The position numbers and the translations under genes are program-made. A model generated the notes under the pieces. That model had not been told where the DNA came from, made no database searches, and was given only the letters and a program-made list of their open reading frames with translations. A stretch of DNA of 64,000 nucleotides from an uncultured Solirubrobacterales bacterium (GTDB taxonomy: Bacteria > Actinomycetota > Thermoleophilia > Solirubrobacterales > 70-9): the NCBI GenBank assembly GCA_963717495.1, contig OY970339.1:2551798-2615797 (forward strand), in the 5' to 3' direction. Below, piece by piece: positions 48,310 through 64,000 of this stretch (position 1 is its first letter; every line of letters begins with the position of its first letter).

Positions 48310-49149
48310 ATGCCAGGAATCCGAACCAACGCAGCGGCCGAAGTGCTCGGCGTCAGCCCCAACACGCTCCGCAGCTGGGAGCGTCGCTACGGCTACCCGA
48401 CGCCCAAGCGCACCGTCGGCAACCACCGCAACTACGAGCTGGTCGAGCTGCAGACCCTGCGCGATGCCCTCGCCCAGACCGGCAACATCTCTTCGGCGAT
48501 CGAGCTGGCGCGCCAGCGCCAGGAGGCCCCGGCCAGCGGTGGAGAGATCCTCGCTGCGCTCGAGAACTTCGACGAGGCCGCCGCCGACCGCGCGATCGAG
48601 GAGAGCCTGGCGCTGCGGCCGCTGGAGCGCACGGTCGAGGAGATGCTGCTGCCGGCGATCGACGAGCTCGCCGCCGACCCCGACCGCGAGGCCGAGCTCG
48701 AGTTCGCCTCGCGCTGGGCGACCGGCTGGCTGCACGGCGCCCGCCGCCTCGCCCCCGCCGCCTCGCGCCCGGCCGGGATCCTGCTGCTCGACTCGAGCGA
48801 CGGACAGGACGCCGAGGCGGTCCACACCCAGGCGCTGGACCTGGCCCTGCGCCGCGCCGGCTTCCGCGTCCTCGTCCTCTCCAACGGCCTCGGCGACGAG
48901 CGCCTCGAGCGCGCCCTCGGCGCCCTCGACCCGACCGCGATCGTCGTCTGCGGCCCCGGTGCCGACACTCAGGGCGCGGTCAAGCTTGTCCGCAAGATCC
49001 GCGAGCTCGGCTTCGTCGCTCCGCTCTTCGGCTTCCGCGCCGCCGGTCTGATCGGCGCCGCCGTACCTTCGGCGGGGGAGAGCCCCAGCCAGGTCACCGG
49101 CATGCTCAATGCCGACCTGCGCCGCCGTGCCGCCCAGGCTTTCGCCTAA
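48310..49149 (+). CDS. MerR family transcriptional regulator with C-terminal Rossmann/B12-binding-like domain
   Basis: HTH 'AAAEVLGVSPNTLRSWERRYGYPTPKRTVGNHRNY'. The C-terminus 'GILLLDSSDGQDAEAVHTQALDLALRRAGFRVLVLSNG' resembles LitR/CarH architecture, but I saw no canonical DxHxxG. Confidence 0.7.
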   Translation: MPGIRTNAAAEVLGVSPNTLRSWERRYGYPTPKRTVGNHRNYELVELQTLRDALAQTGNISSAIELARQRQEAPASGGEILAALENFDEAAADRAIEESLALRPLERTVEEMLLPAIDELAADPDREAELEFASRWATGWLHGARRLAPAASRPAGILLLDSSDGQDAEAVHTQALDLALRRAGFRVLVLSNGLGDERLERALGALDPTAIVVCGPGADTQGAVKLVRKIRELGFVAPLFGFRAAGLIGAAVPSAGESPSQVTGMLNADLRRRAAQAFA

Positions 49150-49205
49150 CTCCTCACCTTTCCCGAACCCCGTTGGTGACCCCCCTGTCACCAGCCGGAA
49201 ACGAT

Positions 49206-49260
49206 CTGGTTACGCGCTGGTAACGGTGCTGTAACGACCTCGTAGAAGTTCGGTGAACGG
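49206..49260. promoter_or_regulatory. Five phased 11-nt direct repeats (PHO-box-like) upstream of the PstS-like gene
   Basis: The units are ctGGTTACgcg, ctGGTAACggt, gcTGTAACgac, ctCGTAGAagt and tcGGTGAAcgg, in exact 11-nt register. The reverse strand of the last unit contains GTTCACC. Confidence 0.35.
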
Positions 49261-49331
49261 GCTTGACAGAGCCATATCCGGCGCACAACTCTGCCGCCGA
49301 AAGGGTTCAGTCAACGAAAGGAATCAATCGC

Positions 49332-51269
49332 ATGAGCGATACGACGAGTGCGCCGCAGAGGGGCGTGCGCGCAATCAGGGCCGGGCTTCTCGCCTTCGCC
49401 CTGGCGGCACTGGCAGCGATCGGACTTGCCTCCCAGGCGAACGCCGATTTCACCAGCGGCAAATGTGGAGGAGTGAACACGAACGCGAACGGCGCCAGCT
49501 TCGCGAAAGGCGCGCAGGAAAGCTTCAACTCCTACTTCAAAAGCTTCTATTGCGCCGGCAGCGGGCTCGGCGTCGCATACAACGCGAACGGCAGCGGCGC
49601 CGGTATCGAAGGCGCCCAGCTGCGCGAAGGCACCTCCCGTTTCTGGGGTAGCGACGATCCCCCCACGCCGGCTCAGGTGGCGCTGATGAACTCCGGCGCG
49701 AAAAAAGAAACCGTCGAAGGCAAACCGAAAGTCGTTCCGGACGGGGTTGAAGGCAACGAGGGCAAAATCCACGTATACCCGGTCGCCGCGGGGGCGATTG
49801 CCCCTCTGGTCAACTTCCCGCTGGGCTGCGACCCCGAACAGCTGGCTGACAAATACCGCACCGTCTCGGCTGCGCAGATCACCGGCAACGCCGCGCTGAA
49901 AGGCATTCTGCGCGTTCGCTTCACCAAGGTCCAATACGAGAAAGTCTGGGCCGGGGTGGAAAACGTCAAATGGAGTGAAGCTTTCCCCGAACTCACGGGT
50001 GCCCCCTGCGAAGTGCCGATCATCCGCGTCGTGCGCTTCGACAAGTCCGGCACGACCTTCGGGTTCAAGGACTACCTGCGCACGATCAACCCCGCACGGG
50101 GCTGGACCACCACCTTCGAGAGTGGGACCGGCGAAATCGGCAACCGCGAATGGCCCAACGCCGTTTTCGGCCCCCGCGCCGACTGCCCCGGCAAAGAAGG
50201 CCCCGGCTCCCAGGAAGACAGCATCGACCACCTCACCTCGGGTTGCGAAAACGGCAACGGCGAACTGGTCAAAAAAGTGATCGCCACCGATGGTTCCATC
50301 GGCTACGCGGATATCGCCACCGCCCGCAACGCGAGCCCGACCCTCGCGGTCAACGCCGCGCTGACCGAGGCCCCGACCACTCCTTACTGGACCCAGGTCC
50401 AGAACGGGTCGATCGGTGTCGGCTCCGCGCAGGAAGGGGAAGGCAAAGGGTTCACCGAGCCGACCCTCGACGAAGCCAACGGCTTCAAGACGACGGCGGC
50501 CACGACGCCGGGTCAGAAGGGAGCCAACTGCATCTCGGGGGCCATCTTCCAGAACACCCCCGCGAACAGCTTCGGCAACTGGGCGAATACCAGCGGCGTG
50601 AACGCGGCCTCGGGCTACGGGATCTGCACGCTGACCTACGCGCTCGTGTTCGACGATAACTCGGCGGTGTTCAAAAACACCCCCGAAGAGGAGAGCAAAG
50701 CTCGTACCGTCAAGGACTATGAGGAAGGCATCGTCACCGACGCGGCTCAGGCTCAGCTCCTCGCCGCGGACTATGCGCCTCTGCCCCCGTCGCTGCTGAC
50801 GCTCGCCCGGGTCGCGGTCGCACAGATCGGCTGGAACAAGGCCGGTTCCGGCGGCGGTGGTGGTGGTGGTGGCGGAACCACCCCCGCTGTCACTCCTGCC
50901 GCCGGTGGCGGTCCCGCTCCGGTGGTCATCAGCAACCAGTTCTCGGTTCCGCGCAAGACGATCTCGTCGAAAACCGGCAGCGCGACCTTCTCGGTCAAGC
51001 TGCCCGGCGCCGGCAAGCTCGACGTCGTCGGCACCGCCAAGTCCGGCAAAAAGACGATCAAAGTCGGACAGGTCGTCCTCACCGCCGGCAAAGCCGGCAC
51101 CTACTCGGTGACCCTCAAGCCCAGCGGCGCGGCAAAGCAGCTGCTGAGCAAAAACGGCTCGCTGAAGGTCAGCCTCAAGTTCACCTTCTCGCCCACCGGC
51201 GGGACGGCGAAGAGCTCGAACAGCTCGGTGACCCTGAAGCTGGTCAAAAAAGCCGGGAGCAACGCGTAG
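49332..51269 (+). CDS. Secreted PstS-family (phosphate-binding-like) protein fused to a poly-Gly linker and Lys-rich C-terminal beta-module
   Basis: ATG 49332 after gaaaggaa. Signal peptide 'LLAFALAALAAIGLASQANA'. PstS-like 'NGASFAKGAQESF', 'NANGSGAGIEGA', 'FWGSDDPPT', 'YPVAAGAIAPLVNFP' and 'GSIGYADIA'. G9 run 'GSGGGGGGGGGTT'. Tail 'FSVKLPGAGKLDVVG...SLKVSLKFTFSPTGG'. Confidence 0.75.
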   Translation: MSDTTSAPQRGVRAIRAGLLAFALAALAAIGLASQANADFTSGKCGGVNTNANGASFAKGAQESFNSYFKSFYCAGSGLGVAYNANGSGAGIEGAQLREGTSRFWGSDDPPTPAQVALMNSGAKKETVEGKPKVVPDGVEGNEGKIHVYPVAAGAIAPLVNFPLGCDPEQLADKYRTVSAAQITGNAALKGILRVRFTKVQYEKVWAGVENVKWSEAFPELTGAPCEVPIIRVVRFDKSGTTFGFKDYLRTINPARGWTTTFESGTGEIGNREWPNAVFGPRADCPGKEGPGSQEDSIDHLTSGCENGNGELVKKVIATDGSIGYADIATARNASPTLAVNAALTEAPTTPYWTQVQNGSIGVGSAQEGEGKGFTEPTLDEANGFKTTAATTPGQKGANCISGAIFQNTPANSFGNWANTSGVNAASGYGICTLTYALVFDDNSAVFKNTPEEESKARTVKDYEEGIVTDAAQAQLLAADYAPLPPSLLTLARVAVAQIGWNKAGSGGGGGGGGGTTPAVTPAAGGGPAPVVISNQFSVPRKTISSKTGSATFSVKLPGAGKLDVVGTAKSGKKTIKVGQVVLTAGKAGTYSVTLKPSGAAKQLLSKNGSLKVSLKFTFSPTGGTAKSSNSSVTLKLVKKAGSNA

Positions 51270-51297
51270 TCCACTCCCGACCCATCGCCGGCGCAAC

Positions 51298-51331
51298 GCG
51301 ACGCCCGGGCTCACCTGAGCCCGGGCGTCGC
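51298..51331 (+). terminator. Hairpin terminator after the PstS-like gene
   Basis: 15-bp perfect stem gcgacgcccgggctc/gagcccgggcgtcgc with loop acct. There is no U-tract, so it is the I-shaped hairpin type often seen in high-GC genomes. Confidence 0.55.
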
Positions 51332-51387
51332 GCCGGTGCTGGGGCTCACCGCAACTCAACGCAACCGAAACGGCAGCAAAGGGGCAG

Positions 51388-53424
51388 ATGAACGATCAGC
51401 ACGTAGACCAATCGGCGCGCAAGCGCTCGAGCCGCCTCCCTGTGCGGCCCCCCCAGGTGAACTTCAAGGACGCCGCCGGCGCCTTCGGCGAGCGACTCGC
51501 CGCGATCGGGCGGTGGTTCCTCAAAGACCCGATGAACACGATGCTGATCGCCGCCTCGATCTTCCTCTCCGCCACCTTCTTCATCCTCCTCGACCAGATC
51601 CAGCCCAGCTCGGCCGGCGAAAAGGTGCCGCTGAGCAAGATCTTCAAGCTGACCGAGGACAAGCAGGTCGAGGTCGCGACCCTGCTCGACCAGGACTCGC
51701 GGGTGGTGATCGACACCGCCAACGGGCGCACCGTCTACGCTGCCTATCCGAGCTCGGACGCGCAGACCAACTCGCTGGTCAAAGCCCTGGCCGAAAGCGG
51801 CGCCGTGGTCACGATCGACCAGCAGGCCGATATCCCCTCGAAGCAGATCATGGTCCAGTTCCTGATCCCGATCCTGCTGCTGGTCTGCCTCTTCGTCCTC
51901 TTCACCCGGCTCGGCCAGGACGGCGGCGCCGGGGCCTTCGCCGGCTTCTCGAAATTCACCGGCAAAGGGCGCAAGAAAGGCGCCGAGTCCCCCGATCGGA
52001 CCACCTTCGACGACGTCGCCGGCGCCGGCGAAGCCCTGGCCGAGCTGCGCGAGATCCGCGACTACCTGGCCAACCCGGGCAAATATGCGGCGGTCGGGGC
52101 GCGGGCGCCGAAGGGCGTGCTGCTGGTCGGCCCCCCCGGCACCGGCAAGACGCTGCTGGCGAAGGCAACGGCGGGGGAGGCCGAGGCGACCTTCTTCTCA
52201 CTCTCCGGCTCGGACTTCGTCGAGTCGCTGGTCGGGGTCGGTGCCGCCCGTGTCCGCGACCTCTTCGCCAAGGCCCGCAAACAGGCGCCGGCGCTGATCT
52301 TCATCGACGAGCTCGACGCCGCCGGGCGCAAGCGTGGCGCCGGCGTCGGCCAGGGCAACGACGAGCGCGAGCAGACGCTGAACGCGATGCTGGTCGAGAT
52401 GGACGGCTTCGGCGGCGACGCCGGCGTCGTCGTCCTCGGCGCCACCAACCGTCCCGACATCCTCGACCCGGCGCTGCTGCGACCGGGCCGCTTCGACCGC
52501 CAGGTGACCGTCGACGTGCCCGACGTCCACGGCCGCCTCGACATCCTCACCCTGCACTGCAAGGGGCGGCCGCTGGCCCCGGGCACCTCGCTCGACGAGG
52601 TCGCGAAACTGACCTCGGGCTTCAGCGGCGCCGAGCTCGCCAACGTAATCAACGAGGCGGCGCTGCTGACCGTGCGCGAGGGCCGGGTCGAGATGGACCA
52701 GGCGACGCTGGAGGAGGCGATCGACCGGGTGATTGCCGGCCCGGCTCGCAAAAACCACGTGCTCAGCGAGGAGGAACGCTGGACGATCGCGATCCACGAG
52801 TCCGCCCACGCCGTGGTGATCCGCTCCAGCGGCCAGAAGATGACCACCCAGAAGGTCTCGATCGTCGCCCGCGGGCGCCAGATGGGGACCGCCGCGAACA
52901 TGCTCACCGACCGCGACGCGGTGGTCATGCAGGAGCCCGACATGCGCCGCCACCTGATCGCGATCGTGGCCGGTTTCGCGGCCGAGCGGATCGAGTTCGG
53001 CGTCGCCTCGACCGGCGTCCACGACGACCTCCACGCCGCCACCGGCCTGGCCCGGATGATGGTCACCTCCTACGGGATGTCGCCGGCGCTGGGCCCGGTG
53101 ACGATCGGCGAGAAAGCCGGCGAGGTCTTCCTCGGCGCCTCGCTGCAGGACATGGGCCAGGTCGCGCAGGCGACGCTGGAGACGATCGACAGTGAGGTCG
53201 AGCGGCTGGTCGGCGACTCGGTCAACCAGGCCGAGGCGATCCTCAGGACCAACTGGAGCGCCGTCTACGAGACGGCCAACGCGCTGATCGAGCACGAGAC
53301 GCTCTCCGGCCACGCGCTCGACGCCGTGCTTGCCTCGGTCCAGCCGACTCTGCTCGACTTCGGCACCAAGGTCGACGCGGAGGTGGAGACGCGCGAGTTC
53401 GAGGCCCAGTCGGAAGGTGAGTAG
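51388..53424 (+). CDS. ftsH: ATP-dependent zinc metalloprotease FtsH
   Basis: '[18 protein letters not shown]' (Walker A), 'IIFIDELDA', the SRH '[19 protein letters not shown]' and the zinc motif 'HESAHAVV'. Confidence 0.95.
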
Positions 53425-55039
53425 AGCGGCGAAAACGGCGCTGGCCTCTCTCGCGGCGCTGCTGATCGCGGCGATCGGCTCAGGCTCTGCCCGCGCCGAC
53501 GCCCTGATCTGGCGCCTGGAGCAGCCGGCACCGCCGTCTGGCTCCCCCTTCAAAGTGCCGCTCGGAGCGCCGGGAGATCTCTCCTTCTGGGCCCCGAACC
53601 GCGGCTTGCTGACGGTCGAGGGCAACAGCACGATCCCGCGTGGCATCTTCAGCTGGAACGGCCAGAGCTGGCACCAGCTGGCGACCGTCTGTGGCGGGCC
53701 AGGCGACAGCGCGCGGATTGCCTGGGCCGGTCCCGACGAGTTCTGGGTGATCAGCGAACCAAGCCTGCCGCGCTCCGGCGCGGGCCTCGCCCTCTGTCGC
53801 TTCAAGGGCGGCCAGGTGGTCGGCTCCTGGAGCACCCGGGTCGACGCCGCCGACCCGTTCCGGCAGATGCTCTCGGCAACCTGCAACGGGCCGGGCGACT
53901 GCTGGTTCGGCGGTGTGGGATCTCAGGACGCCCTCGGCACCCGCATTGGCGCCTTCCACCTCCACTGGAATGGGTCCGACCTCGAATCGGTCTACGGCCC
54001 GCAGGGACGAGGGGTCAGCGACATGCAGTTCCACCAGGGCCGTCTCTATGAGTCCACCTATGTCGGGCGGGGTCCTGAAAACCGCGGCGAAGCGGTAGAG
54101 CTCGCCGAAACGGAGGCGGTGCCGAGGCTGATCCACACGGTCAGCGGCCATGCCTTCGCCAGTGATCCCTTCACGCCCGCCGCCCTGCCGGGCGTGCCCG
54201 GCGATGGCACCGAGCTGCTCGGCCTCGACAGCGACGGCACCGATCTCTGGGCGGTCGGCGGCGGGGCCGCGTCGGGGCCCTCGGCGCCGGCGGAAAAATC
54301 GGTGGCGCGTCCGCCCTTCGCCGCCAGGCTGGTCGCCGGTTCCTTCCAGGAGCTGGAGCTGACCGGCGGCGAATTCGGGCTCACCGACCGCCTCGGCGAC
54401 GTCGCCGCCATGCGCGGCAGCGAAGACGCGATCGCCACGGTGGTCCCCTTCGCCGACCGTCGCAGCACCAACAGCAAGGCGACCGTGGCCCGGATCGCGC
54501 CCGACGGCACGGCGACGACCACGCGCCTGCCGGCCTCGGGGGCGGGGCGCGGCAGCGCCGCCCGGGTCGCCTGCCCGGCCGTGAACGACTGCTGGATGGT
54601 CACCTGGGGCGGCTGGCTCTTCCACTACAGCGACGGCACTCCACTCGCGATCGACACCGACCCCAATTTCCAGGGCACGATCGATTTCCGCCCCAACGAG
54701 GCGGCCGAACAGTTCGTCCCCGATGCGCTTCCGGTCGACGATTCGCAGCTGTTCGCCCCGGCTCCGGTCGAAGACGCGAAAGCGAAGGAAGCGCGCATCC
54801 GCAAGCTGGCGCCGCTGCTGAAGCGGATCCGCTCGCGGCTTCAGGGGCTCGCGCTGACGGTCAGCTTCACCGTCACCCGGCGAGCGCGGGTCGCGCTGAT
54901 CGCCAAGCGCGGCGGCCGCACCGTCGCCCGCACGCCCAAGCGCACGTTCGGGCCCGGCCGCCACTCCCTCCTGCTCCACCTCAGCCGCGACCGCTACCCG
55001 ACCAAGCTGGCCTTCGACACCAAGGAGGTGAAGCGGTGA
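53417..55039 (+). CDS. Secreted beta-propeller-like protein with Arg/Lys-rich C-terminal module
   Basis: GTG 53417 overlaps the ftsH stop by 8 nt (start uncertain). Signal peptide 'ALASLAALLIAAIGSGSARA'. Trp/Gly-rich repeats ('FSWNGQSWHQL', 'HLHWNGSDLE', 'MVTWGGWLFHY'). Tail 'LALTVSFTVTRRARVALIAKRGGRTVARTPKRTF'. Confidence 0.7.
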   Translation: MSRAAKTALASLAALLIAAIGSGSARADALIWRLEQPAPPSGSPFKVPLGAPGDLSFWAPNRGLLTVEGNSTIPRGIFSWNGQSWHQLATVCGGPGDSARIAWAGPDEFWVISEPSLPRSGAGLALCRFKGGQVVGSWSTRVDAADPFRQMLSATCNGPGDCWFGGVGSQDALGTRIGAFHLHWNGSDLESVYGPQGRGVSDMQFHQGRLYESTYVGRGPENRGEAVELAETEAVPRLIHTVSGHAFASDPFTPAALPGVPGDGTELLGLDSDGTDLWAVGGGAASGPSAPAEKSVARPPFAARLVAGSFQELELTGGEFGLTDRLGDVAAMRGSEDAIATVVPFADRRSTNSKATVARIAPDGTATTTRLPASGAGRGSAARVACPAVNDCWMVTWGGWLFHYSDGTPLAIDTDPNFQGTIDFRPNEAAEQFVPDALPVDDSQLFAPAPVEDAKAKEARIRKLAPLLKRIRSRLQGLALTVSFTVTRRARVALIAKRGGRTVARTPKRTFGPGRHSLLLHLSRDRYPTKLAFDTKEVKR

Positions 55040-58000
55040 GCCGGGTGCAGGCGAATCGCCGCCGTCTCCTCGTCGCGACGAGCGTCTTCGCGGTCTCCAT
55101 CGCGCTCGCCTCGCTGGGGGCGCCGAGCGGTCGCGGCGAGCCATTGGCGCCCGGAGTGGGCCCGCTGCCCCTGCTTGGCACCGCCGACCCGGCGATGAGC
55201 CTGATGGGGGCGGCGCCGGCGGGCCAGCCAGGCGAGGCCTGGGGGTACAGGCAGCTGCCGGCCTCGGTCACCTCCGCCGAAGTCGGCACGCGGCCGCTCG
55301 CCTTCGGTCCTCCCCTGGAAGCGAGCAACCCGCGCGCCCAGCTCGCCTTCCTCCGCTACACCGACGCCAGCGGCTGGCAGGTCTACGAGACGCCGGTGGA
55401 CGCCTCCGGCAACCCCTACCGCGGCCCCACCCCGAACCGCCTCTCGGCGAGGATCACCCGCGAGGGCGGGGGGGTGCTCGTCGGTCGCGACCCGACCCGG
55501 CCGACGAGCGACCAGGTGGTTGTGCTCGACCACGATCCCGGCGGCCCCTGGAAAGCGCTGCAAGCGCCGCCGGCGACGGTCCTGCTCCCAGCCGAAGGCG
55601 AAAGACCGGCGGAGACCCTGGCCGCGGAGCTCGGTGCCGGCCAGATCGCCAACGCCGCCTTCGACGAAGGCGGCCACACCGGCCTCTTCTTCGCCCCAAC
55701 CGGCCGTTCGGTCGCCGACGCGGTTATCCGCTACGACGGCGCCAAAGCCGAATGGGCCCGCGAGCCGGTCAAAGTCCCGCTCGGCTCGGAGACCGAGTTC
55801 CAAATCCTCGCGATCGACGCCACCGGCCTCGGCAACGCCTGGGCGATCGCCGATGCGGCCGACGGGCTGGGGCGCTCGGTGGTCCTGTTGCAGCGGACCA
55901 TCACCCCCGAAGGCCCGCTCTGGGTCGAGCGGGGGCTGGGCGCCGCCCAGTTCGCCGACCGCGAAACGCCGGCGCTGGGAATCTCAGGACTGGCCCCGAT
56001 CGGCGGCGCCGCGCAGCCGCTGACGGTGACCGCGAGCGGGGTCTGGATTGATCTCACCGGAACGATCGGGGGCGCCAGCCGCGACGTCACGGTGTACTAC
56101 GACATCGGCGCCGGCGCCGTGACCAGCTCCTGGTGCGACGTGGAAGCGGTCTGCGGCACGCGCAGGCTCGGTGTCAAGCTCTCGCGCCAGGTCGGCTACC
56201 GCAGCTTCGCCTGGCCCGGCGCCGGCGCCGGCTCCAGGGTCGTCACCAACCCGCTCGACGTCGATGGCGGCGAGGAAACCAATCGCGGCACCTATCTGCG
56301 GCTGAGCGGGGAAAGCTTTGCGCGGATGCCCGGCGCCGGCGGCAACTTCCGCGCCGGCGGCGCTTTCTACAACGACCAGAGCGGCTGGCTGGACGGTCCG
56401 CTTGAGATCTCGGGCAAGGCCGCGCCCGACCTCCTGCGCCCCTGGCCGATCTCGCTGAGAGCGCCGCTGACCGCGGCGACGACGGCGCCGGGCTCCGCGC
56501 CGGGCTCGCTTGCCTCGGGCGCCCTGACGGTCGGAGTCGATGGCAGCGTCGCCCGCTACGCCCCCGGCAAGGGCTGGCAGCGCGAGTTCCTGCTCAGCGC
56601 CAGCGGCGCGGTCAGGAAGCCGGTCCTGCGTGGCGTCGCCTGGCCGGAACGGGGACACGCCTACGCGGTCGGGGACCTCGGGGCGATATGGGAGTGGAAC
56701 GCGAGCGACGGCCTCTGGATCGCCGATCCCGGGGTTCCGATCGGCTTCGAGGGCAACCTCACCGGCGTCGCCTTCGATCCCGCCGAACCCGATCGCGGCT
56801 TCGCCGTCGGCAAGGACGGTGTCCTGCTCCGCTTCGGCAAGAGCTGGGAGCAAGACGTCCTGCCCCCTGGTTTCGCCGGCCGCAGCTTCACCTCGATCGC
56901 CTTCGCCGGCCGCGAGGCGATCGTCGCCGCCGGCGGCGACCTCCTGGTCGAAGACGGTGGCGGCTGGCACGCCGACGCCTCGGCCCAGGCGCTGCTGCGC
57001 GGCGCCCCCGGCGCGCAGCCCTACATCTACGCGGTCGCGGGGCTGCCCGACGGCGGTGCCGTCGCGGCGGGCCGCGACGTGGTGATCGAGCGCGACGGTG
57101 GCCCCGGCACGCCCTGGCGCTTCTCCAAGCAGCCGATTCCGGGCTCGACCGCGATCGCCGCCGCCGCGGTGCGCGACGGTGGGGTCCGCGCGATCGTCTC
57201 GGTCGTTCCGCAGCTCTCCTTCCCGCCCGCCGACGATGTGCCGCCGCCCGACCCAACCGTGCCGCCGCCGATCCTGCCGCCGTTCGCGTTGCCCGGCGAC
57301 GGCTATCTGCTGCGCGAGACCGCGAACGGCTGGGAGGACGAGCAGCGGACCAGCTTCGCCGGCTCCGGAGCGGACCGGCCGCTGAAGAGCGACCCGGTGC
57401 TGGCGCTCCTGCTCGACTCCGCCGGCGCCGGCTGGGTGGTCGGCGGCTGGAGCGGCCACGCCGACATCACCGGCCGCGGCACCTCTGCCAGCGGCAGTGC
57501 CGCAAGTGCCATTCGCGCCCGGGTCAGGACCGCCTCGATCGCTCGCTTCGGCGCCGCCGCCGCCCCGGCCCCGGTCGCCGCCAGAAGCACGCCGGTCCCC
57601 CTGCCCGGCGGTCCGGTCCGTTTCGCCGTCGCCGGCAACGCGACCTGCGAGGAAGCCTGCGCCGACCTCGCCCCGCAGTCGATCGGGCCTGACAGGACCC
57701 TCAGCGCCGCCCTGCGGCTGGCCGGGGCGATGCACGGCGCGGCCGCCGGCCCCCGGGCGCTGCTTTACACCGGCAACCGGGTCGCCACGGGGCTCGGCCA
57801 GGCCGACGGCGAACGCTATGCGGTCCTGCTGGGCTCCGAACCGAGCCTTCCGGTGTTTCCCGCCGTGGGCTCCGGCGATGTCAGCAACGGCCTCGGTTCG
57901 AGCGTGTTCGCGACGTCCTTCGCCGGATTCCCGGCACCGCTGGGGACGGGCGCCGCGGCCGCGGGAATCTCGACCGCCGGCATTCCGGGCGCCCCCGCCC

Positions 58001-59511
58001 CCGCCGGCGCCCGCACCCACTACGCGTTCGACAGCAGCGGGCCGGGCGGCACCGTGCGCGTGATCGTTCTCGACAATTCGCACGGGTCGCTGGCCACCAG
58101 CGACCCCTATCAGAACCCGCCGGAGGCTCAGCTGCCCTGGCTCGAAGCGGTGCTTGCCGATGCCCGCGCCAGGGGAATCCCCACCGTGGCAATGGGCAAC
58201 CGCAGCCTCAACGCCAACTTCACGCCGAAGCTCAACGTTGCCGACGATGGCACCGAGGTGGCGCGGGTGCTGGTCGACGGCGGCGCCTCGGCCTACCTCT
58301 TCGACCGCCCTGAAGAGAACCGGACGATGCGAATCCCGGCTGGTGGCGCCACCACGATCCCCAGCTTCGGGACCGGCACGCTCGGCTATCGCTCCGAGCT
58401 CTCGGGCGTGGTCGGCGGCAGCGCCGCCGACTCCCTGTTCGGCGACAGCGGGATGATGCTGTTCGAACTCGACGCCTCCAAGCGCGATCCGGGCACGAAC
58501 CGGGCACCGGTCAACATCAGGCTGATCCCGGTGATCCAGGACCTCACGCTCGAGGCGACGGACGGGACCCTGCTGCGCCGTTCGATTCCGGCCCTGTTCA
58601 GCGGCCTCGGCCGCCGACCGCTGGGGGGCGACCGCTGGGGCGTCTCCTCAGCCGGGTCGGGGATTCCAAGCCCTTCCGGCAGCACTCCATACACCGCGTT
58701 CCCACCAGAACCGTGCCTGGTCGCGGGCTGTGCGGACCGGATCGCTCCCGAATACAGCTTCACCTCCTCGGATCCGGACATCGCCGATTTCGTGCGCCAG
58801 GATCCCGCCTCGGCCAACCTCCACAAGCCCTTCCTGGACCAGAGCGACAAGGTCGTCACCGACAACAGCTCCGGCCTGCTCTGCCCCTTCAACGCCGGCA
58901 CCACGACGCTGACGGTCAGCGCTGGCGGCTTCTCCTACTCCGAAGCGGTGACGATCCAGGGCGGCAGCGTCCGCCGTCCGTGCGGGACCCGGCCACTGCG
59001 GCCGGATCGCTTCAAACGCGCCGCCAGCGTCACCACCCCGCCGCCGCCTCCGCCGCCGCCGCCCGGATCCAGTCCGCCGGTGGATCTCGTCCCGCCCGCC
59101 CCGGCGCCGTTGACGCCCCCGGCCACCCCGCCGCCACCCCCGACCCCCGTCAACGTGATCCCGCCCGCGCCGCTGGCCCCGGCGGCGTTCATCCCCTTCG
59201 CCGGCCTCGTCGCCGCCGTGCCTGCGGCCGTGCTGCCGCCTCCGCCGCCGGTCGTGCGCCCGCTGCCCCCAGGCGGGGCGCCGGCACGGACCTACCAGGT
59301 CGAGGAAAAGCGCGAAGAGGAGGCGGCGATCGAGGAGTCCCAGGCCTTCTCCCGCTACGAAAGCGAGGACGAAGGCCTGACCGTGCCGCCCTACCTGCTG
59401 GGCCTGATCGTGATCGCCGCGATCGGCGGCGCCACGGTTCGCGGCGGCCCCCGCGACAAGCGCCGCGCGGCTCCGGCGGCCGCCAGCACGGGCCGGCGCC
59501 GACGCTACTGA
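55036..59511 (+). CDS. Giant (1491 aa) secreted/tail-anchored protein: beta-propeller repeats, metallophosphoesterase-like region, Big_2-like Ig domain, poly-Pro stalk and C-terminal TM anchor
   Basis: - GTGA overlap with the upstream stop; RBS aaggagg. Signal 'LLVATSVFAVSIALASLGAPS'.
- Ycf48/BNR-like repeats ('GNAWAIADAADG', 'HAYAVGDLGAIWEW', 'RGFAVGKDGVLLRFG').
- 'VRVIVLDNSHG...VAMGNRSL' is a degenerate GNHx motif.
- 'SSDPDIADFV...GTTTLTVSAGG'.
- Poly-Pro stalk 'PPPPPPPPPGSSPP...'.
- TM anchor 'YLLGLIVIAAIGGATV' followed by 'RGGPRDKRR'. Confidence 0.8.
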   Translation: MSRVQANRRRLLVATSVFAVSIALASLGAPSGRGEPLAPGVGPLPLLGTADPAMSLMGAAPAGQPGEAWGYRQLPASVTSAEVGTRPLAFGPPLEASNPRAQLAFLRYTDASGWQVYETPVDASGNPYRGPTPNRLSARITREGGGVLVGRDPTRPTSDQVVVLDHDPGGPWKALQAPPATVLLPAEGERPAETLAAELGAGQIANAAFDEGGHTGLFFAPTGRSVADAVIRYDGAKAEWAREPVKVPLGSETEFQILAIDATGLGNAWAIADAADGLGRSVVLLQRTITPEGPLWVERGLGAAQFADRETPALGISGLAPIGGAAQPLTVTASGVWIDLTGTIGGASRDVTVYYDIGAGAVTSSWCDVEAVCGTRRLGVKLSRQVGYRSFAWPGAGAGSRVVTNPLDVDGGEETNRGTYLRLSGESFARMPGAGGNFRAGGAFYNDQSGWLDGPLEISGKAAPDLLRPWPISLRAPLTAATTAPGSAPGSLASGALTVGVDGSVARYAPGKGWQREFLLSASGAVRKPVLRGVAWPERGHAYAVGDLGAIWEWNASDGLWIADPGVPIGFEGNLTGVAFDPAEPDRGFAVGKDGVLLRFGKSWEQDVLPPGFAGRSFTSIAFAGREAIVAAGGDLLVEDGGGWHADASAQALLRGAPGAQPYIYAVAGLPDGGAVAAGRDVVIERDGGPGTPWRFSKQPIPGSTAIAAAAVRDGGVRAIVSVVPQLSFPPADDVPPPDPTVPPPILPPFALPGDGYLLRETANGWEDEQRTSFAGSGADRPLKSDPVLALLLDSAGAGWVVGGWSGHADITGRGTSASGSAASAIRARVRTASIARFGAAAAPAPVAARSTPVPLPGGPVRFAVAGNATCEEACADLAPQSIGPDRTLSAALRLAGAMHGAAAGPRALLYTGNRVATGLGQADGERYAVLLGSEPSLPVFPAVGSGDVSNGLGSSVFATSFAGFPAPLGTGAAAAGISTAGIPGAPAPAGARTHYAFDSSGPGGTVRVIVLDNSHGSLATSDPYQNPPEAQLPWLEAVLADARARGIPTVAMGNRSLNANFTPKLNVADDGTEVARVLVDGGASAYLFDRPEENRTMRIPAGGATTIPSFGTGTLGYRSELSGVVGGSAADSLFGDSGMMLFELDASKRDPGTNRAPVNIRLIPVIQDLTLEATDGTLLRRSIPALFSGLGRRPLGGDRWGVSSAGSGIPSPSGSTPYTAFPPEPCLVAGCADRIAPEYSFTSSDPDIADFVRQDPASANLHKPFLDQSDKVVTDNSSGLLCPFNAGTTTLTVSAGGFSYSEAVTIQGGSVRRPCGTRPLRPDRFKRAASVTTPPPPPPPPPGSSPPVDLVPPAPAPLTPPATPPPPPTPVNVIPPAPLAPAAFIPFAGLVAAVPAAVLPPPPPVVRPLPPGGAPARTYQVEEKREEEAAIEESQAFSRYESEDEGLTVPPYLLGLIVIAAIGGATVRGGPRDKRRAAPAAASTGRRRRY

Positions 59512-59524
59512 GCCGGGGACCTAG

Positions 59525-59875
59525 CTACGCGATCCGTTCCGGGGTGAAGCGGTAGCCGATGCCGAAATGAGTGTGGATGTAGCGCCAGTCGGGGGCGGCC
59601 AGCTCCAGCTTGCCGCGCACCTTGCGCACGAGAACGTCGACCGAGCGGTCCCGGCGTGACATCTCCCCGCCCCACATCAGCTCGTAGACCTCGGGCCGCT
59701 GGACGACGCTGTCGAGCCGCTTCGCGAGCAGGAAGAAGAGCTCGAACTCGCGCACGGTGAAGCCGACCCGCCTGTCGCCGACCAGCACCTGCAGTTCGGC
59801 CGGCCGGATCTCGAGGTTGGCCAGGCGCATCACGCCCCCGCTGGGCGCGGCGGAGGTCGGCGGTTCGGCCAGCAT
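59525..59875 (-). CDS. Stand-alone OmpR/PhoB-type winged-helix DNA-binding protein (no receiver domain)
   Basis: 'LQVLVGDRRVGFTVREFELFFLLAKRLDSVVQRPEVYELMWGG...VDVLVRKVRGKLE...IHTHFGIGYRF' is the trans_reg_C signature. The start is uncertain (59875 or 59830; the track ORF extends to 59983). Confidence 0.75.
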   Translation of the reverse strand: MLAEPPTSAAPSGGVMRLANLEIRPAELQVLVGDRRVGFTVREFELFFLLAKRLDSVVQRPEVYELMWGGEMSRRDRSVDVLVRKVRGKLELAAPDWRYIHTHFGIGYRFTPERIA

Positions 59876-59979
59876 CGAGCCGTACCCTTTCCCGGCCGCG
59901 CGCCCAGACGGTGAAGGGCCTGTTTCGATTTGGAGAAGATTTGGTGAACCGACCCAGGAGGGCCTCCCGGGTGCGCTCG

Positions 59980-62007
59980 TCAATCGCTGGCGAAGGTGAC
60001 CGTGGTGGCGGCGTGGAGGCGCCTGCCACCGCCGGCGGGGGTGAACGTGACTTTGACCCGGGCCCGCAGCTCCTGCCCGCGCTTCAGCGCCGCCCGGTAG
60101 CGAGGGGCGGCCCGCATGACTACGTGGAAGCTTCCCTTGCCGCGAGCCCGCGTCTGGCGGGCGGCGATCTCCCGCACCCGCGGCGGTTTGCCGCGCCGCG
60201 TCGTCGCCACCGCCTTGATCGCGCCCGCCGCCGGAACCGAGATGGTCAGCACGATCACGCCACCGGCTTTGGCCTGCGCCCGAACGAAGACCCGGGCCCC
60301 CGCCCGGCTTTCCTTGACCGAGCTGGCGCCGCCAGCCGTACGCGCCGCGGTGGGCGCCCCTTCGATTGGCTGGGGGAGCCGGGTCGCGACGAAGGCGTCG
60401 GCGCGCTGGTTAGCGTCGCCGCGAAAGAGGTTGCCGGCGAAGGAGCTGAAGGCGACTCGGGACCCGTCGCCGGATATCGCGACACCGTCCTGGGCGCCGC
60501 CGTCGACGTCGCCACCGGAGATCGAGTGGGTGGCCCGCTCCAGCGTGCGGCTCTGGAGGTCGACCACGTAGAGCTCCTGGGGGCCGGGTACCGCGCGCGG
60601 GGCACCGGTCAGTTGCAGGGCGGGCAGGACAAATCTGGTGCGGCTGGTGGTCATCGCGAGAAAGCGACCACTTGACGACAGCGCGATCGAGCCCAGCGGC
60701 AGGTTGGTCGCGAGGTCGCCCGTCGAGGTATCGCGGGTCAGCTCGACGGTGCCCTGCTTACGACTCACGCCCGGCCGCATGTCGGTGAGATAGAGGTCGA
60801 GACCCGGGCCGCTCTGGACGACCGGACGGGGGCCGGCGCCGGTGAGGAAGGCGACCGTGTAGCCGTCGCCACTGAGCGCCGGCAGCTGCGAGCCGATGTC
60901 GGCGCGGTTGGCCTCCTGGTCGGTCAGCGGGCCGAGGCAGGGACCGGTCGCGCTGGGGCTGAACACGGTTTCCATGCCAGGGTTTTCCATTTCCATCTGG
61001 CGGCAGACCGGGTCATCCGGATCGGCGAGGCCGGTGATCCGGCGCGTCGGCTCCGTGGGCCCGAACGGGGCGCGGCGCCAGAGGTAGTAGTTGAAGCTGG
61101 GGTCCGGGTTCTCGCCCGCGAGGAGACGGGTCTGGACACTGGCGTTGCCGCCGGTCCAGGCGACGGTGGTGCCATCGGCGCTGAGTGCGGCGCCGATGGC
61201 ACCACCGGAGGGCTCGGCGCTCATCAGCCCCGTTTCCGCGTCGCGCACAGCGGTGACCAGGGTCGTCGTCTGCCCGGTCAGGTCACGGACGAAGATCTGC
61301 CCGGCGGCCGTTTCGACTCCCGGCCTGGCGGGCAGGTCGGAAACAGCCTCGGTGCGAAAGGCGATCCTGCCGCCGTCGGCGCTGATCGCCACCCCGGGGG
61401 ATACTTCAGCGCCAGGATCGCCCCCGGCGAGCGGGACAGCCGGAGGCGCGTAACTCGCCGGCGCTTCGCCGCCGCCGCGGGCCGAGACCAGGGTGTAGGC
61501 GCCGGGTTCGTTCGGCGAACGGCTCATATCCCTGCGGTAGACGTCGACGTTGTCGTTCCCGTCGGCGGGCACCAGCCGCTGGCCGGTCGAGAAGGCGACG
61601 AAGCGTCCGTCGGCGCTGATCGAGGGGTTCGAGGCGCCGCGGCGGAGGAAGGCGTTGTCGCTTTCGCGGAAGAGGTCCCCGTCGGCGACTTTTGCCAGCA
61701 TCCTCGTCTGCAGGTCGAAGCGGAAGACGCCGCCGACGCGGTAATCGCCGGCCGGGTCGGGATCGTCGTCGGCGAAGAAGTTGCGGGCTCGGGTCTGCAT
61801 CGCGACGTAGCGCCCGTCGGCGGAGATCGCCGCGAATTTGGTCGTGTCGTCGCCCTGTTCGAGGCGGCCGTAGTCGGCGGATATCAGCTGCGCGCCCGCC
61901 GCTCCGTCGACGGCGTTGCCGAAGAAGGCGCCGGCGCCGGCGGGCACGGCAAGCCCGAGAAGGGCCAGGACGGCAGACGTGAGATGGGCCAGTGCTTGGC
62001 GGCTCAT
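59980..62007 (-). CDS. Secreted PD40/TolB-like beta-propeller protein with Arg/Lys-rich C-terminal module
   Basis: Signal 'LTSAVLALLGLAVPAGAGA'. At least 7 repeats of '[IL]S[AG]DG..[VI]A[FWM]' (e.g. ISADGRYVAMQT, ISADGRFVAFST, LSGDGYTVAFLT, ISGDGSRVAFSS). Tail 'LTISVPAAGAIKAVATT...RARVKVTFTPAGGG'. Confidence 0.8.
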   Translation of the reverse strand: MSRQALAHLTSAVLALLGLAVPAGAGAFFGNAVDGAAGAQLISADYGRLEQGDDTTKFAAISADGRYVAMQTRARNFFADDDPDPAGDYRVGGVFRFDLQTRMLAKVADGDLFRESDNAFLRRGASNPSISADGRFVAFSTGQRLVPADGNDNVDVYRRDMSRSPNEPGAYTLVSARGGGEAPASYAPPAVPLAGGDPGAEVSPGVAISADGGRIAFRTEAVSDLPARPGVETAAGQIFVRDLTGQTTTLVTAVRDAETGLMSAEPSGGAIGAALSADGTTVAWTGGNASVQTRLLAGENPDPSFNYYLWRRAPFGPTEPTRRITGLADPDDPVCRQMEMENPGMETVFSPSATGPCLGPLTDQEANRADIGSQLPALSGDGYTVAFLTGAGPRPVVQSGPGLDLYLTDMRPGVSRKQGTVELTRDTSTGDLATNLPLGSIALSSSGRFLAMTTSRTRFVLPALQLTGAPRAVPGPQELYVVDLQSRTLERATHSISGGDVDGGAQDGVAISGDGSRVAFSSFAGNLFRGDANQRADAFVATRLPQPIEGAPTAARTAGGASSVKESRAGARVFVRAQAKAGGVIVLTISVPAAGAIKAVATTRRGKPPRVREIAARQTRARGKGSFHVVMRAAPRYRAALKRGQELRARVKVTFTPAGGGRRLHAATTVTFASD

Positions 62008-64000
62008 CCGACCCGCACCCTGCGCTCGAGCTGGACGGTGTTGCCGGCGTGGTCGCGGGCGCTGACGAGGAGGCGGTAGGTGCCGGCCTTCGCATAGGCG
62101 TGGCGGACCGTCTTGACGATCGGCTTCTTCTTGCCCTTGCCGCCCTTCTTGTGTTTGGCGGTGGAGATCACAGTGCCGCCGCCACCCTTCTCCTGGCCCT
62201 TTCCACCGCCCGTTCCGTCGCCGAAGAGGACCTTCGCCGAGCTGCTCTTGAGGCCGGAGGTCCCGAGCCTGCCACCGTCGGTAATCGAGACGGCGAGGCG
62301 CTGACCGTGCCGCCGCACAGTCACCTTCGGCGGCCGCCGGTCGATCCGTAGCACGGCATTGCGGGAGCCGGTCTGCTGGCCGGCGTCGTCGATTGCGAAG
62401 ACCTGGATGCGGTGGCGGCCGTCGCCGATCTCACCGCTGCGCAGCAGCGCGAAGAGCCGTTTCGTTTCCTTGCCGACCGGCTCGTCGTCGACGCTGACCG
62501 AGTAGTCGACGTGGCCGATCGCGTTGACCGCGGCGGCCCAGTGGATCGCGACCTCGGCCTGGCGCCTCCAGCCCGCCGGAGTCTGCACGAAGAAGGGGTT
62601 GGGAGGAGCGTTGACGATTGCGGCCGCGACCTGCGTGTTGGCGCCGCTGCCCTGGGTCCAGGCGACGATCGCGTCGCCGAGCCCGGAGCCTCCCATCCGC
62701 ACTCCGCCGACGGCACCGCCCAGCGGTGCGCTCAGCCCGGCCGGATCGACCACGCCGTCGGCCCGGCGCTCCTGGACCCCGACCGCGCCGGCGCCGCCGC
62801 GCAGTTCGCGCCAGGCGGCGACCGCGGCGCCGGTTTCGGAGAAGTCGACCTGGGGGTCGCCGGCGACGGAGCTCGCGCCTTCGTCGAGCCGCAGCACGCT
62901 GCCGACTTTGTCGTTATCACCGGTCCCGAGCAGCGTCGCCGAGTCGCTGCCGAAGCCGGCCACGAAGGCACCGTTGGGCTCGACGCCGATGCTCGGCACA
63001 CCCAGCCCGGCCCGGACGCCGCCGTCGGCCAAGCGGGCGCCGGCGAAGGCCGCGGCGCCGGTGGCAAAGGCGTCGGGCATCTCGTTGACGAAGAGACGCG
63101 GCGCGGTCAGCTTGCTCGACTGGCCCGGCTGCTGGCGCAGCGCCACGGCGGCCTGGCCGAAGCCGCCGACGTCGAGCGAGAAGGCGTCGGCGGGCCCGCG
63201 CAGCGGCACCCCTTCCAAGCTCGAGGGGCTGACCTGGAGGGGGATGCCGACGGTGGTCCCGAACAGTCGCCGAGCCCAGACGCGGTCGACGAATTCGTCA
63301 TCGGGCTCCTGCCAGGCGACGACGCCGTTGCCCTGGACGTCGATCCCGATCCGCGGTCCCGTGGCCTCGGTTGGCAGCCGCAGCGGCGCCGCCGGGTTGC
63401 GGTTGACCGGACTGCCGAGCGGCGACCAGAGCCGGTTGTTGTAGCGGGCGGCACGCACGCTGGCGCTGACGTAGCCGGGCGGGTTGGCGGCGCTGGTGTC
63501 GGTGACGACGAGATAGGCGAGATACGCCTGCCCGCCGGCATTCATCGCCAGGTCGGGAAAAGACGAGGTCGCCTCGCCGACGTTGAAGTCGACCGGCACC
63601 GGGGGCGAGAAGCCGCTCGCGCCCGGGTCGAGACCGGCCGAGAACATGCGGTCGCTGCCGACCCCGAACTCCTGCACCCAGGTGACCAGCAGGCGCCCAC
63701 GGTTGCCGGCCGCGATCCGCGGCCAGCTCGAGTCGAACGCCTGCCCAACGTCGATCCGCAACGGCGCGGTCCAGGCGTTGCCGTCGAAGCGGGTGACAAA
63801 AACATGGTTGCGCCCGTCCGCTTTTTTCAGATAGACGACACCACCGCTTCCGTCTTCGGCCATCGCCGCATCCGTCACTTCGACCAGGTCGGCACTGGGC
63901 CCCTCGATCAGGTGCGTGTCGGAGATTTCAGCACCGGCGGCAGCGGGCCAGACGAGCAGGAAGAGGCCGACCGCGGCGACTGGCAGGAAGCGAGGGCGCA
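62004..64000 (-). CDS. Large secreted protein (5' end beyond the window) with repeated Trp-containing beta-repeats, an FN3/Ig-like domain and a PKD-like C-terminus
   Basis: - The track ORF starts at 63878, but the frame stays open to 64000. I translated it by hand as ...RPRFLPVAAVGLFLLVWPAAAGAEISDTHLIEGPSADLVEVTDAAM, a signal peptide, so the true start lies beyond the window.
- The C-terminal 'VRHAYAKAGTYRLLVSARDHAGN' is PKD-like.
- There is a 4-nt overlap with the downstream gene. Confidence 0.75.
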   Translation of the reverse strand, partial: RPRFLPVAAVGLFLLVWPAAAGAEISDTHLIEGPSADLVEVTDAAMAEDGSGGVVYLKKADGRNHVFVTRFDGNAWTAPLRIDVGQAFDSSWPRIAAGNRGRLLVTWVQEFGVGSDRMFSAGLDPGASGFSPPVPVDFNVGEATSSFPDLAMNAGGQAYLAYLVVTDTSAANPPGYVSASVRAARYNNRLWSPLGSPVNRNPAAPLRLPTEATGPRIGIDVQGNGVVAWQEPDDEFVDRVWARRLFGTTVGIPLQVSPSSLEGVPLRGPADAFSLDVGGFGQAAVALRQQPGQSSKLTAPRLFVNEMPDAFATGAAAFAGARLADGGVRAGLGVPSIGVEPNGAFVAGFGSDSATLLGTGDNDKVGSVLRLDEGASSVAGDPQVDFSETGAAVAAWRELRGGAGAVGVQERRADGVVDPAGLSAPLGGAVGGVRMGGSGLGDAIVAWTQGSGANTQVAAAIVNAPPNPFFVQTPAGWRRQAEVAIHWAAAVNAIGHVDYSVSVDDEPVGKETKRLFALLRSGEIGDGRHRIQVFAIDDAGQQTGSRNAVLRIDRRPPKVTVRRHGQRLAVSITDGGRLGTSGLKSSSAKVLFGDGTGGGKGQEKGGGGTVISTAKHKKGGKGKKKPIVKTVRHAYAKAGTYRLLVSARDHAGNTVQLERRVRVG

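Follow-up and report, generated by a model that had tools for sequence, protein, structure and literature searches.

A conserved Solirubrobacterales envelope gene cluster with an ftsH paralogue, Ycf48-like propellers and candidate PHO-box-like operators

In Escherichia coli the protease FtsH is surrounded by HflK/HflC, and in photosystem II repair the propeller protein Ycf48 holds or presents D1. We know of no Ycf48 gene that is translationally coupled to ftsH, nor of any photosystem in Solirubrobacterales, an order of abundant soil bacteria for which, to our knowledge, there is almost no experimental genetics. An FtsH has also been tied to phosphate regulation, in that cyanobacterial FtsH1/3 controls the Pho regulon by lowering PhoU (PMC11287208). 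PHO boxes consist by definition of 11-nucleotide (nt) direct-repeat units, with the core GTTCACC in Streptomyces coelicolor (PMC4415409). Here we describe a locus in the genome of an uncultured Solirubrobacterales bacterium in which genes for an FtsH paralogue, a PstS-like protein, large exported proteins and an orphan winged-helix protein stand together with candidate operators of this kind. It lies in a stretch of 64,000 nt (the window; assembly GCA_963717495.1, contig OY970339.1, positions 2,551,798 to 2,615,797), and extends a little beyond its end; positions are those of the window, and continue past it as window-equivalent positions.

We consider it fairly probable that the locus is a single conserved Solirubrobacterales envelope cluster that belongs to a phosphate regulon together with both pst operons of the genome, and that ftsH and the two genes behind it, encoding proteins A and B, are read from one message. 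The source genome is a single contig of 2.72 Mb, and the region studied has about 72% G+C. Our literature search found no paper linking a Solirubrobacterales FtsH to such a cluster, nor one describing the cluster itself.

Gene content and conserved order

All the genes proposed in an initial annotation of the window are present, as are the short overlaps that it described between them. On the plus strand, ftsH (51388-53424, 678 amino acids (aa), a divergent FtsH paralogue) is followed by the gene for protein A (53417-55039, 540 aa), whose GTG start lies 8 nt ahead of the ftsH TAG (an 8-nt overlap), and by that for the tail-anchored protein B (55036-59511, 1491 aa), which overlaps A by 4 nt (GTGA). 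The minus strand carries the genes for protein D (62004-64000 in the window, 665 aa) and protein C (59980-62007, 675 aa), again with a 4-nt overlap, and then an orphan winged-helix gene, WH (59525-59875, 116 aa), convergent with B. In the whole-genome sequence D starts with an ATG at 64001, the first codon past the end of the window, with GGGAGG before it.

The first gene of the ftsH-containing unit encodes a 645-aa PstS-like protein (49332-51269, plus strand) that matches PBP_like_2 (PF12849) with 42.6 bits against a cut-off of 27 and ends in a basic, immunoglobulin (Ig)-like C-terminal module. The start listed for this open reading frame (ORF), which would give 668 aa, is a TTG at 49263 that forms part of a conserved TTGACA hexamer (49263-49268), and a conserved AAAGGAA followed by ATG stands some 69 nt past the hexamer. 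Since the TTG is thus promoter-like and the AAAGGAA/ATG pair is conserved further on, we place the start of the gene at ATG 49332. A promoter upstream of this gene would then drive one transcript covering ftsH, A and B, and D and C would form a second transcription unit. A scan of 49000-64000 found no sigma-70 consensus promoter, no excess of terminator-like hairpins over shuffled sequence, and nothing resembling a terminator between ftsH, A and B. The convergent stop codons of B and WH are only 13 nt apart, and no terminator-like hairpin was found in the gap between these genes (59511-59525); the two transcripts may overlap at their 3' ends.

When species-representative genomes were scanned, 418 loci encoding a relative of A were obtained, of which the best 80 were kept for the locus counts. 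With the exception of one mislabelled record, all of these are from Solirubrobacterales or Thermoleophilia, the cultured Solirubrobacter deserti being among them; close homologues of A all come from Solirubrobacterales metagenome-assembled genomes (MAGs). FtsH is encoded immediately before A in 80/80 loci and B immediately after A in 78/80, and a PstS-like gene lies upstream of ftsH in 75/80. C is present in 72 and D in 65 of the 80, and WH stands near B in 58. The overlaps are conserved as well, at -8 nt between ftsH and A in 54 of 78 loci, at -4 nt between A and B in 57 of 76 and at -4 nt between D and C in 43 of 60, and such start/stop overlaps persist down to 40-50% protein identity. Among 41 related genomes, a strict first look had detected B in 13, which extend to four other families of the order, and in every one of the 11 relatives' loci inspected, spanning five families of Solirubrobacterales, the order is PstS-like, FtsH, A, B. 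The initial annotation had named conserved synteny in relatives as something to look for, and the ftsH-A-B and D-C strings are indeed tightly coupled and kept across the 11 relatives and the 80 loci.

Some individual records deserve mention. One titled as a Bifidobacterium breve MAG (CAMCVN010000007.1) carries a Solirubrobacterales FtsH-A-B-C-D cluster, with A 55% identical, and is probably mislabelled or mis-binned. In one genome of the same genus as the source, the orthologues of A and B are broken by in-frame TGA stops and frame changes, with ftsH nearly intact; the pair may be decaying in that genome, or a long-read assembly may have introduced indel errors.

In the commonest layout one strand carries a MerR-type gene, D, C, the PstS-like gene, FtsH, A, B and a further gene, E, and the other strand carries WH, located after E, with pstS-pstCA-pstB divergent from WH. 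In more distant families, including S. deserti, pstS is divergent directly from D; strain CPCC 204708 of S. deserti has the string D-C-PstS-like-FtsH-A-B-E beside pstS. In the window and its nearest relatives D-C has come to lie between WH and pstS. The two convergent coupled operons that were originally proposed therefore hold as tight strings, ftsH-A-B and D-C, but not as a general arrangement: in most genomes D-C precedes the PstS-like gene and shares a strand with ftsH-A-B. As judged from these gene orders, the convergent layout is a derived, lineage-specific rearrangement found only in close relatives of the source genome. D-C, the ftsH string, WH and pstS remain grouped in all three orders, a pattern that argues for selection on their linkage. 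Protein E is a small exported protein (242 aa) without a family match. In 50 loci there is a 4-nt overlap between its gene and the stop of B; in the source genome its homologue is found at window-equivalent 70936-71850, about 7 kb past the window and behind a pst operon.

Phased repeat arrays and the two pst operons

Upstream of the PstS-like gene, at 49207-49261 on the plus strand, five to seven 11-nt direct repeats (CTGGTWACG-type) form a phased array that ends 2 nt before the TTGACA hexamer. This upstream region is conserved over the 75 loci aligned, with six to seven such units, whose core has G at position 4, T/A at 5, A at 7 and A/C at 8. A position matrix was built from the units of other genomes, the window being left out, and the source genome was scanned for four phased units in succession; over its 2.72 Mb the background score was -7.1 +/- 2.1 and the 99.99th percentile 11.4. 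The highest score in the genome, 39.0, belongs to the array upstream of the PstS-like gene, followed by one in the spacer between C and WH (59908-59951; 35.0), one upstream of the canonical pstS at 292.6 kb (33.2), one upstream of a second orphan winged-helix gene beside that pstS (33.1), and one in the spacer between D and the neighbouring pstS (window-equivalent 64116; 29.7). The weaker arrays ranked next include those in the upstream regions of an alkaline-phosphatase-like gene (869137; motif NVIFLLGDGMG) and of a glnA-like (glutamine-synthetase-like) gene (354392), both of which are candidate further members of the regulon. Of the 164 arrays that score at least 22 in the 80 loci, 154 precede the PstS-like gene, WH, D or pstS, and the seven genes themselves contain none, with the reservation that the 71 arrays before the PstS-like gene are circular evidence, the matrix having been trained on them. 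An exact 9-mer, CGTWACCAG, was also tried as the operator; it has 13 copies in the genome, four of them in the two spacers of the locus, is not enriched overall, and was replaced by the phased-unit matrix. By their period, placement and sequence the arrays are PHO-box-like candidate operators, common to the units of the cluster and to both pst loci.

One of the two pst operons is divergent from D at window-equivalent 64231-67959 and encodes a 270-aa PstS (PBP_like_2, 100 bits), a fused PstC/A-like permease of 661 aa, and PstB; it lies about 13 kb from the PstS-like gene and within the same conserved cluster. The other is the canonical pst-phoU locus (genome positions 291338-297101), with a response-regulator-like gene, an orphan winged-helix gene, pstS, pstC, pstB and phoU in that order, the winged-helix gene encoding a stand-alone PhoB-type winged helix of 110 aa. 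Each operon thus has as its neighbour an orphan winged-helix gene that is itself preceded by a repeat array.

In the cluster this neighbour is WH. Its sole Pfam match is Trans_reg_C (PF00486; 59.1 bits, cut-off 26.2); no match to a receiver domain (Response_reg) was obtained in it, the longest ORF being 152 aa and the likely protein 116 aa, and orthologues are 103-126 aa long. The best NCBIfam matches are to the C-terminal parts of RpaB, YycF, PhoB and MtrA. WH is, on these domain matches, an orphan OmpR/PhoB-type winged-helix protein, and its earlier description as receiver-less stands. It had also been taken for the last gene of the D-C operon, and here the comparison points elsewhere. The upstream region of WH (59876-59979, minus strand) contains a phased repeat array and GTTCACC...CTTCACC, and the 70 nt next to WH, in which both of these heptamers lie, are conserved between the two layouts, that is, whether the region is the pstS-WH intergenic region or the C-WH spacer. 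WH accordingly keeps a promoter region of its own and need not end the D-C unit.

Because the same phased 11-nt operators are found on both units of the cluster, on WH and on both pst operons, these probably form one regulon. We propose that an OmpR/PhoB-type regulator would control all of them together, and that the encoded proteins would form a cell-surface programme for phosphate limitation. The contrary proposal, that gene order was kept by descent without shared function and that the arrays serve only the pst genes and the regulator, strikes us as quite improbable. It can draw on the origin of all 418 loci in a single order, and on the arrays in the D/pstS and WH/pstS spacers, which could act on pstS alone. 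Against it, three different rearrangements have kept the parts together and the start/stop overlaps have outlasted protein divergence to 40-50% identity, and the strongest array of the genome stands before the PstS-like/ftsH unit, with no pst transporter gene adjacent.

Exported proteins of the cluster

Read directly from the sequence, the N-termini of A, B, C and D each have a basic stretch, a hydrophobic stretch and an AxA-type site, a signal-peptide-like pattern in agreement with the signal peptides assigned to all four large proteins in the initial annotation. The repeat-propeller architecture that it also assigned to all four is borne out for A, by structure prediction, for C, by its PD40 repeats, and for part of B, by a Ycf48 profile, but not for D, in which only the C-terminal Big_13 and PKD Ig-like domains are supported.

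Protein A consists of a signal peptide, a propeller (residues ~30-405), a conserved linker and a basic beta-sandwich (468-537). An AlphaFold2 model (predicted local distance difference test score (pLDDT) 82, predicted template modelling score (pTM) 0.71) gives this division, with an all-beta propeller at 30-405, a linker, and a beta-sandwich at 468-537. Compared by Foldseek, the model matches Ycf48 structures 5ojp, 5ojr and 5oj5 with E-values of 6e-8 to 1e-6 and template modelling scores of 0.60-0.65; the propellers of CylK, GH74 and WD40 proteins score like Ycf48. At the level of sequence A has no match to Pfam PSII_BNR (PF14870), and a search against solved structures gave none either. As modelled, A is a seven-bladed Ycf48-like beta-propeller.

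Protein B is more elaborate. From the N-terminus it has a signal sequence, a beta-rich part with a Ycf48-like propeller, a domain of metallophosphoesterase fold, an Ig-like domain, a Pro-rich stalk, an acidic segment, a transmembrane helix and a basic tail. Residues ~536-693 match Ycf48/HCF136 in the PDB by profile comparison (E 1.9e-6), the only match of B to a solved structure at the sequence level. PSII_BNR scores 17.5 bits in B against a cut-off of 27 and is found in seven of nine B orthologues, and the NCBIfam Ycf48 equivalog scores 12.9 against a cut-off of 326. At the other end (59287-59511, plus strand), an acidic juxtamembrane segment, YQVEEKREEEAAIEESQAFSRYE, precedes a transmembrane helix (~1451-1468) and a basic cytoplasmic tail of 23 aa, so that the earlier reading of B as tail-anchored is upheld. 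In the acidic segment, outside the helix, the columns R1418-R1440 are invariant in nine orthologues of 47-78% identity. Neither B nor the nine-orthologue consensus has an LPXTG or PEP sorting motif before the helix, where the sequence reads ...GLTVPPYLL....

The domain of metallophosphoesterase fold (57595-58545, plus strand; residues ~855-1170) emerged from an AlphaFold2 model of residues 835-1335 built with 41 orthologues (pLDDT 78.7, pTM 0.83), in which it forms an alpha/beta sandwich and is followed by the Ig-like domain. The top Foldseek matches in the PDB are purple acid phosphatases (5uq6, 2bq8, 1war and 1qhw; E ~4e-9), and then Lmo2642, Rv0805 and Mre11. Sequence comparison gives no such match: Pfam detected no Metallophos in nine B orthologues, a six-frame search of the genome with PF00149 matched five other genes and not B, hhalign of B against the genome's own metallophosphoesterases returned nothing, and neither did a search of the region against solved structures. 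After the corresponding strands, the family consensus has AGHA, TGNR, GSxD, GNR and SAY in the places of the canonical DxH, GDxxD, GNH[DE], H and GHxH, a mapping inferred from strand ends in the model, without superposition. This suggests that the domain has lost the dinuclear metal site and is either non-catalytic or re-purposed; an active phosphatase in B was considered, and is unsupported by the motifs as by the profile searches. The domain is confined to B-like proteins, with 593 representatives among 1.84 billion proteins, and most of the full-length proteins among the 150 matches listed are, like B, ~1450-1570 aa long.

Protein C has a signal peptide, PD40 (TolB-type) propeller repeats (PF07676, 34.7 bits, cut-off 20.9) and a basic C-terminal module, and a sequence-level search of solved structures with it returned nothing. 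Protein D has a signal peptide, an N-terminal domain of 470 aa and basic Big_13 and PKD Ig-like domains. The Pfam Ig matches of D itself are weak, as are its matches to solved structures, which are only of PKD type; among its orthologues Big_13 is found in 25 of 27 and PKD in 24 of 27. Basic C-terminal parts, with net charges of +18 to +21, occur on A, C, D and the PstS-like protein, and the bodies of A, C and D, the three for which this was measured, are acidic (-15 to -18). It had been claimed that two of the large proteins carry a basic C-terminal module. Basic parts are in fact present on A, C, D and the PstS-like protein, but homology is demonstrable only for the modules of C and the PstS-like protein (hhalign 97.6%, E 3.5e-12), and a hidden Markov model (HMM) of that module matches these two alone in the genome, the profiles being narrow. 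For the basic modules of A and D no membership of this family was detected, and a single module common to A and C was rejected at the sequence level, the module of C matching the PstS-like protein and not A. Whatever their ancestry, such modules would tether A, C, D and the PstS-like protein to the anionic wall, B being fixed in the membrane; candidate roles would be those of wall-tethered binding or scavenging proteins and, for B, of a membrane-anchored giant with a re-purposed phosphatase fold.

These comparisons also bear on a quite different account of the locus, in which two operons, independent of each other, encode paralogous giant propeller/Ig proteins of an adhesin or S-layer kind and ftsH merely lies upstream. 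All four proteins are exported and beta-rich with Ig-like parts, and a protein encoded elsewhere in the window, at 6647, likewise has NHL-propeller and fn3 domains; from such common themes the initial annotation had postulated a family of paralogous envelope systems that would include the proteins at 6647 and 10774. It had suggested an all-against-all HMM comparison, and when A, B, C, D, the 6647 and 10774 proteins and the PstS-like protein were compared by hhalign nothing was significant except the C-terminal module of C and the PstS-like protein. Probabilities against the 6647 and 10774 proteins were at most 8%, and for A, B and D a BLAST search of the genome detected no paralogue. Paralogy of A, B, C and D with each other was rejected on the hhalign result, and paralogy with the 6647/10774 cluster on hhalign and BLAST together. 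As, in addition, the convergent layout is derived and ftsH is inside the unit in every one of the 80 loci, we regard an origin as independent operons of paralogues as very improbable.

The FtsH paralogue and comparison with known systems

The FtsH of the cluster has two transmembrane helices, an extracytoplasmic domain, an AAA module and an HEXXH protease domain (Pfam: AAA 144 bits, Peptidase_M41 147 bits, FtsH_ext weak), with the Walker A sequence GPPGTGKT and the zinc site HESAH intact. The genome has three ftsH-like genes, which score against TIGR01241 (cut-off 600) with 853 bits for a gene at 1.495 Mb, 645 for the cluster copy and 517 for a short third. Given that the canonical ftsH lies elsewhere and scores 853 bits against 645, the cluster ftsH is, by profile score, a second and divergent full-length copy, not the housekeeping gene. 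Co-produced with A and B, the paralogue would act with them or on them; by analogy with cyanobacterial FtsH1/3, which does so with PhoU, it might also turn over a regulator.

Some observations weigh against membership of the cluster in a phosphate regulon. The array before the PstS-like gene, which abuts the consensus TTGACA, is inverted relative to its gene when compared with the arrays before pstS and WH, and the sign of control could for this reason be repression. Synteny within one order partly reflects common descent. Finally, the phosphatase-fold domain of B, which seems to be without metal ligands, may be unrelated to phosphate.

It is possible, though we think it unlikely, that the cluster is instead centred on FtsH, with A, B and perhaps C, D and E as extracytoplasmic partners that hold or present membrane-protein substrates, and that the connection with phosphate is only one of regulation or neighbourhood. 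The 8-nt and 4-nt overlaps of ftsH, A and B kept across the order would be expected of such a machine, as would a dedicated extra FtsH, the Ycf48-like propellers of A and of part of B, and the invariant acidic segment of B at the outer membrane face with its 23-aa cytoplasmic tail. Yet the similarity to Ycf48 is at the level of the fold, and seven-bladed propellers are common; moreover, an FtsH machine leaves unexplained the PstS-like gene in the unit, the linkage to pstSCAB and the common operators. The regulatory and the FtsH-partner readings are compatible with each other; of the two links, the regulatory one, which was tested in silico, is better supported by the evidence than a physical one. 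It is tempting to speculate further that the FtsH paralogue, A and B are a non-photosynthetic counterpart of Ycf48-FtsH, a phosphate-regulated protease for which the propellers select or hold substrates and on which the tail or juxtamembrane segment of B docks. We hold this to be doubtful, but if true it would show a role of Ycf48-type propellers that preceded photosystem II, and would add a new class to the FtsH accessory proteins.

More generally, exported Ycf48-like propeller genes that overlap ftsH appear to be undescribed, and could bear on the extracytoplasmic partners of FtsH and on the origin of Ycf48. The families of A, B, C and D are large and labelled only 'hypothetical protein'; the cluster gives them a testable context, phosphate limitation, and provides a candidate operator motif for the order Solirubrobacterales. 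Should the cluster prove to comprise only wall proteins under Pho control, it would be a useful if ordinary addition to the Pho regulon.

Of the systems with which the cluster may be compared, FtsH-HflK/HflC of E. coli is alike in that FtsH is accompanied by proteins that cross the membrane once, have large extracytoplasmic parts and could modulate the protease. A and B differ in that they are not SPFH-domain proteins (no Band_7 match), that B is anchored by its C-terminus, and that the proposed association with FtsH comes from gene overlaps. Ycf48/HCF136, which works with FtsH2/FtsH3 in the assembly and repair of photosystem II, resembles A as an extracytoplasmic seven-bladed propeller encoded or working alongside an FtsH complex, whereas A bears an extra basic beta-sandwich, B is more than four times larger, and with PSII_BNR B stays below the cut-off and A is without a match. 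Calcineurin-like metallophosphoesterases (PF00149) and purple acid phosphatases have the same sandwich fold as residues ~855-1170 of B, without a match at the sequence level. The Pho regulon, under PhoB in E. coli and PhoP in Bacillus subtilis and S. coelicolor, has in common with the cluster the 11-nt tandem direct repeats next to a promoter, the occurrence of the motif before pstS, an alkaline-phosphatase-like gene and a regulator gene, and a PstS-type protein in one locus with pstSCAB. It differs in that an FtsH paralogue and large propeller proteins, which the cluster unit holds, are not among its known members, in that the neighbouring regulator of the cluster, WH, is without a receiver domain, and in that the array of the PstS-like gene points the other way from the arrays of pstS.

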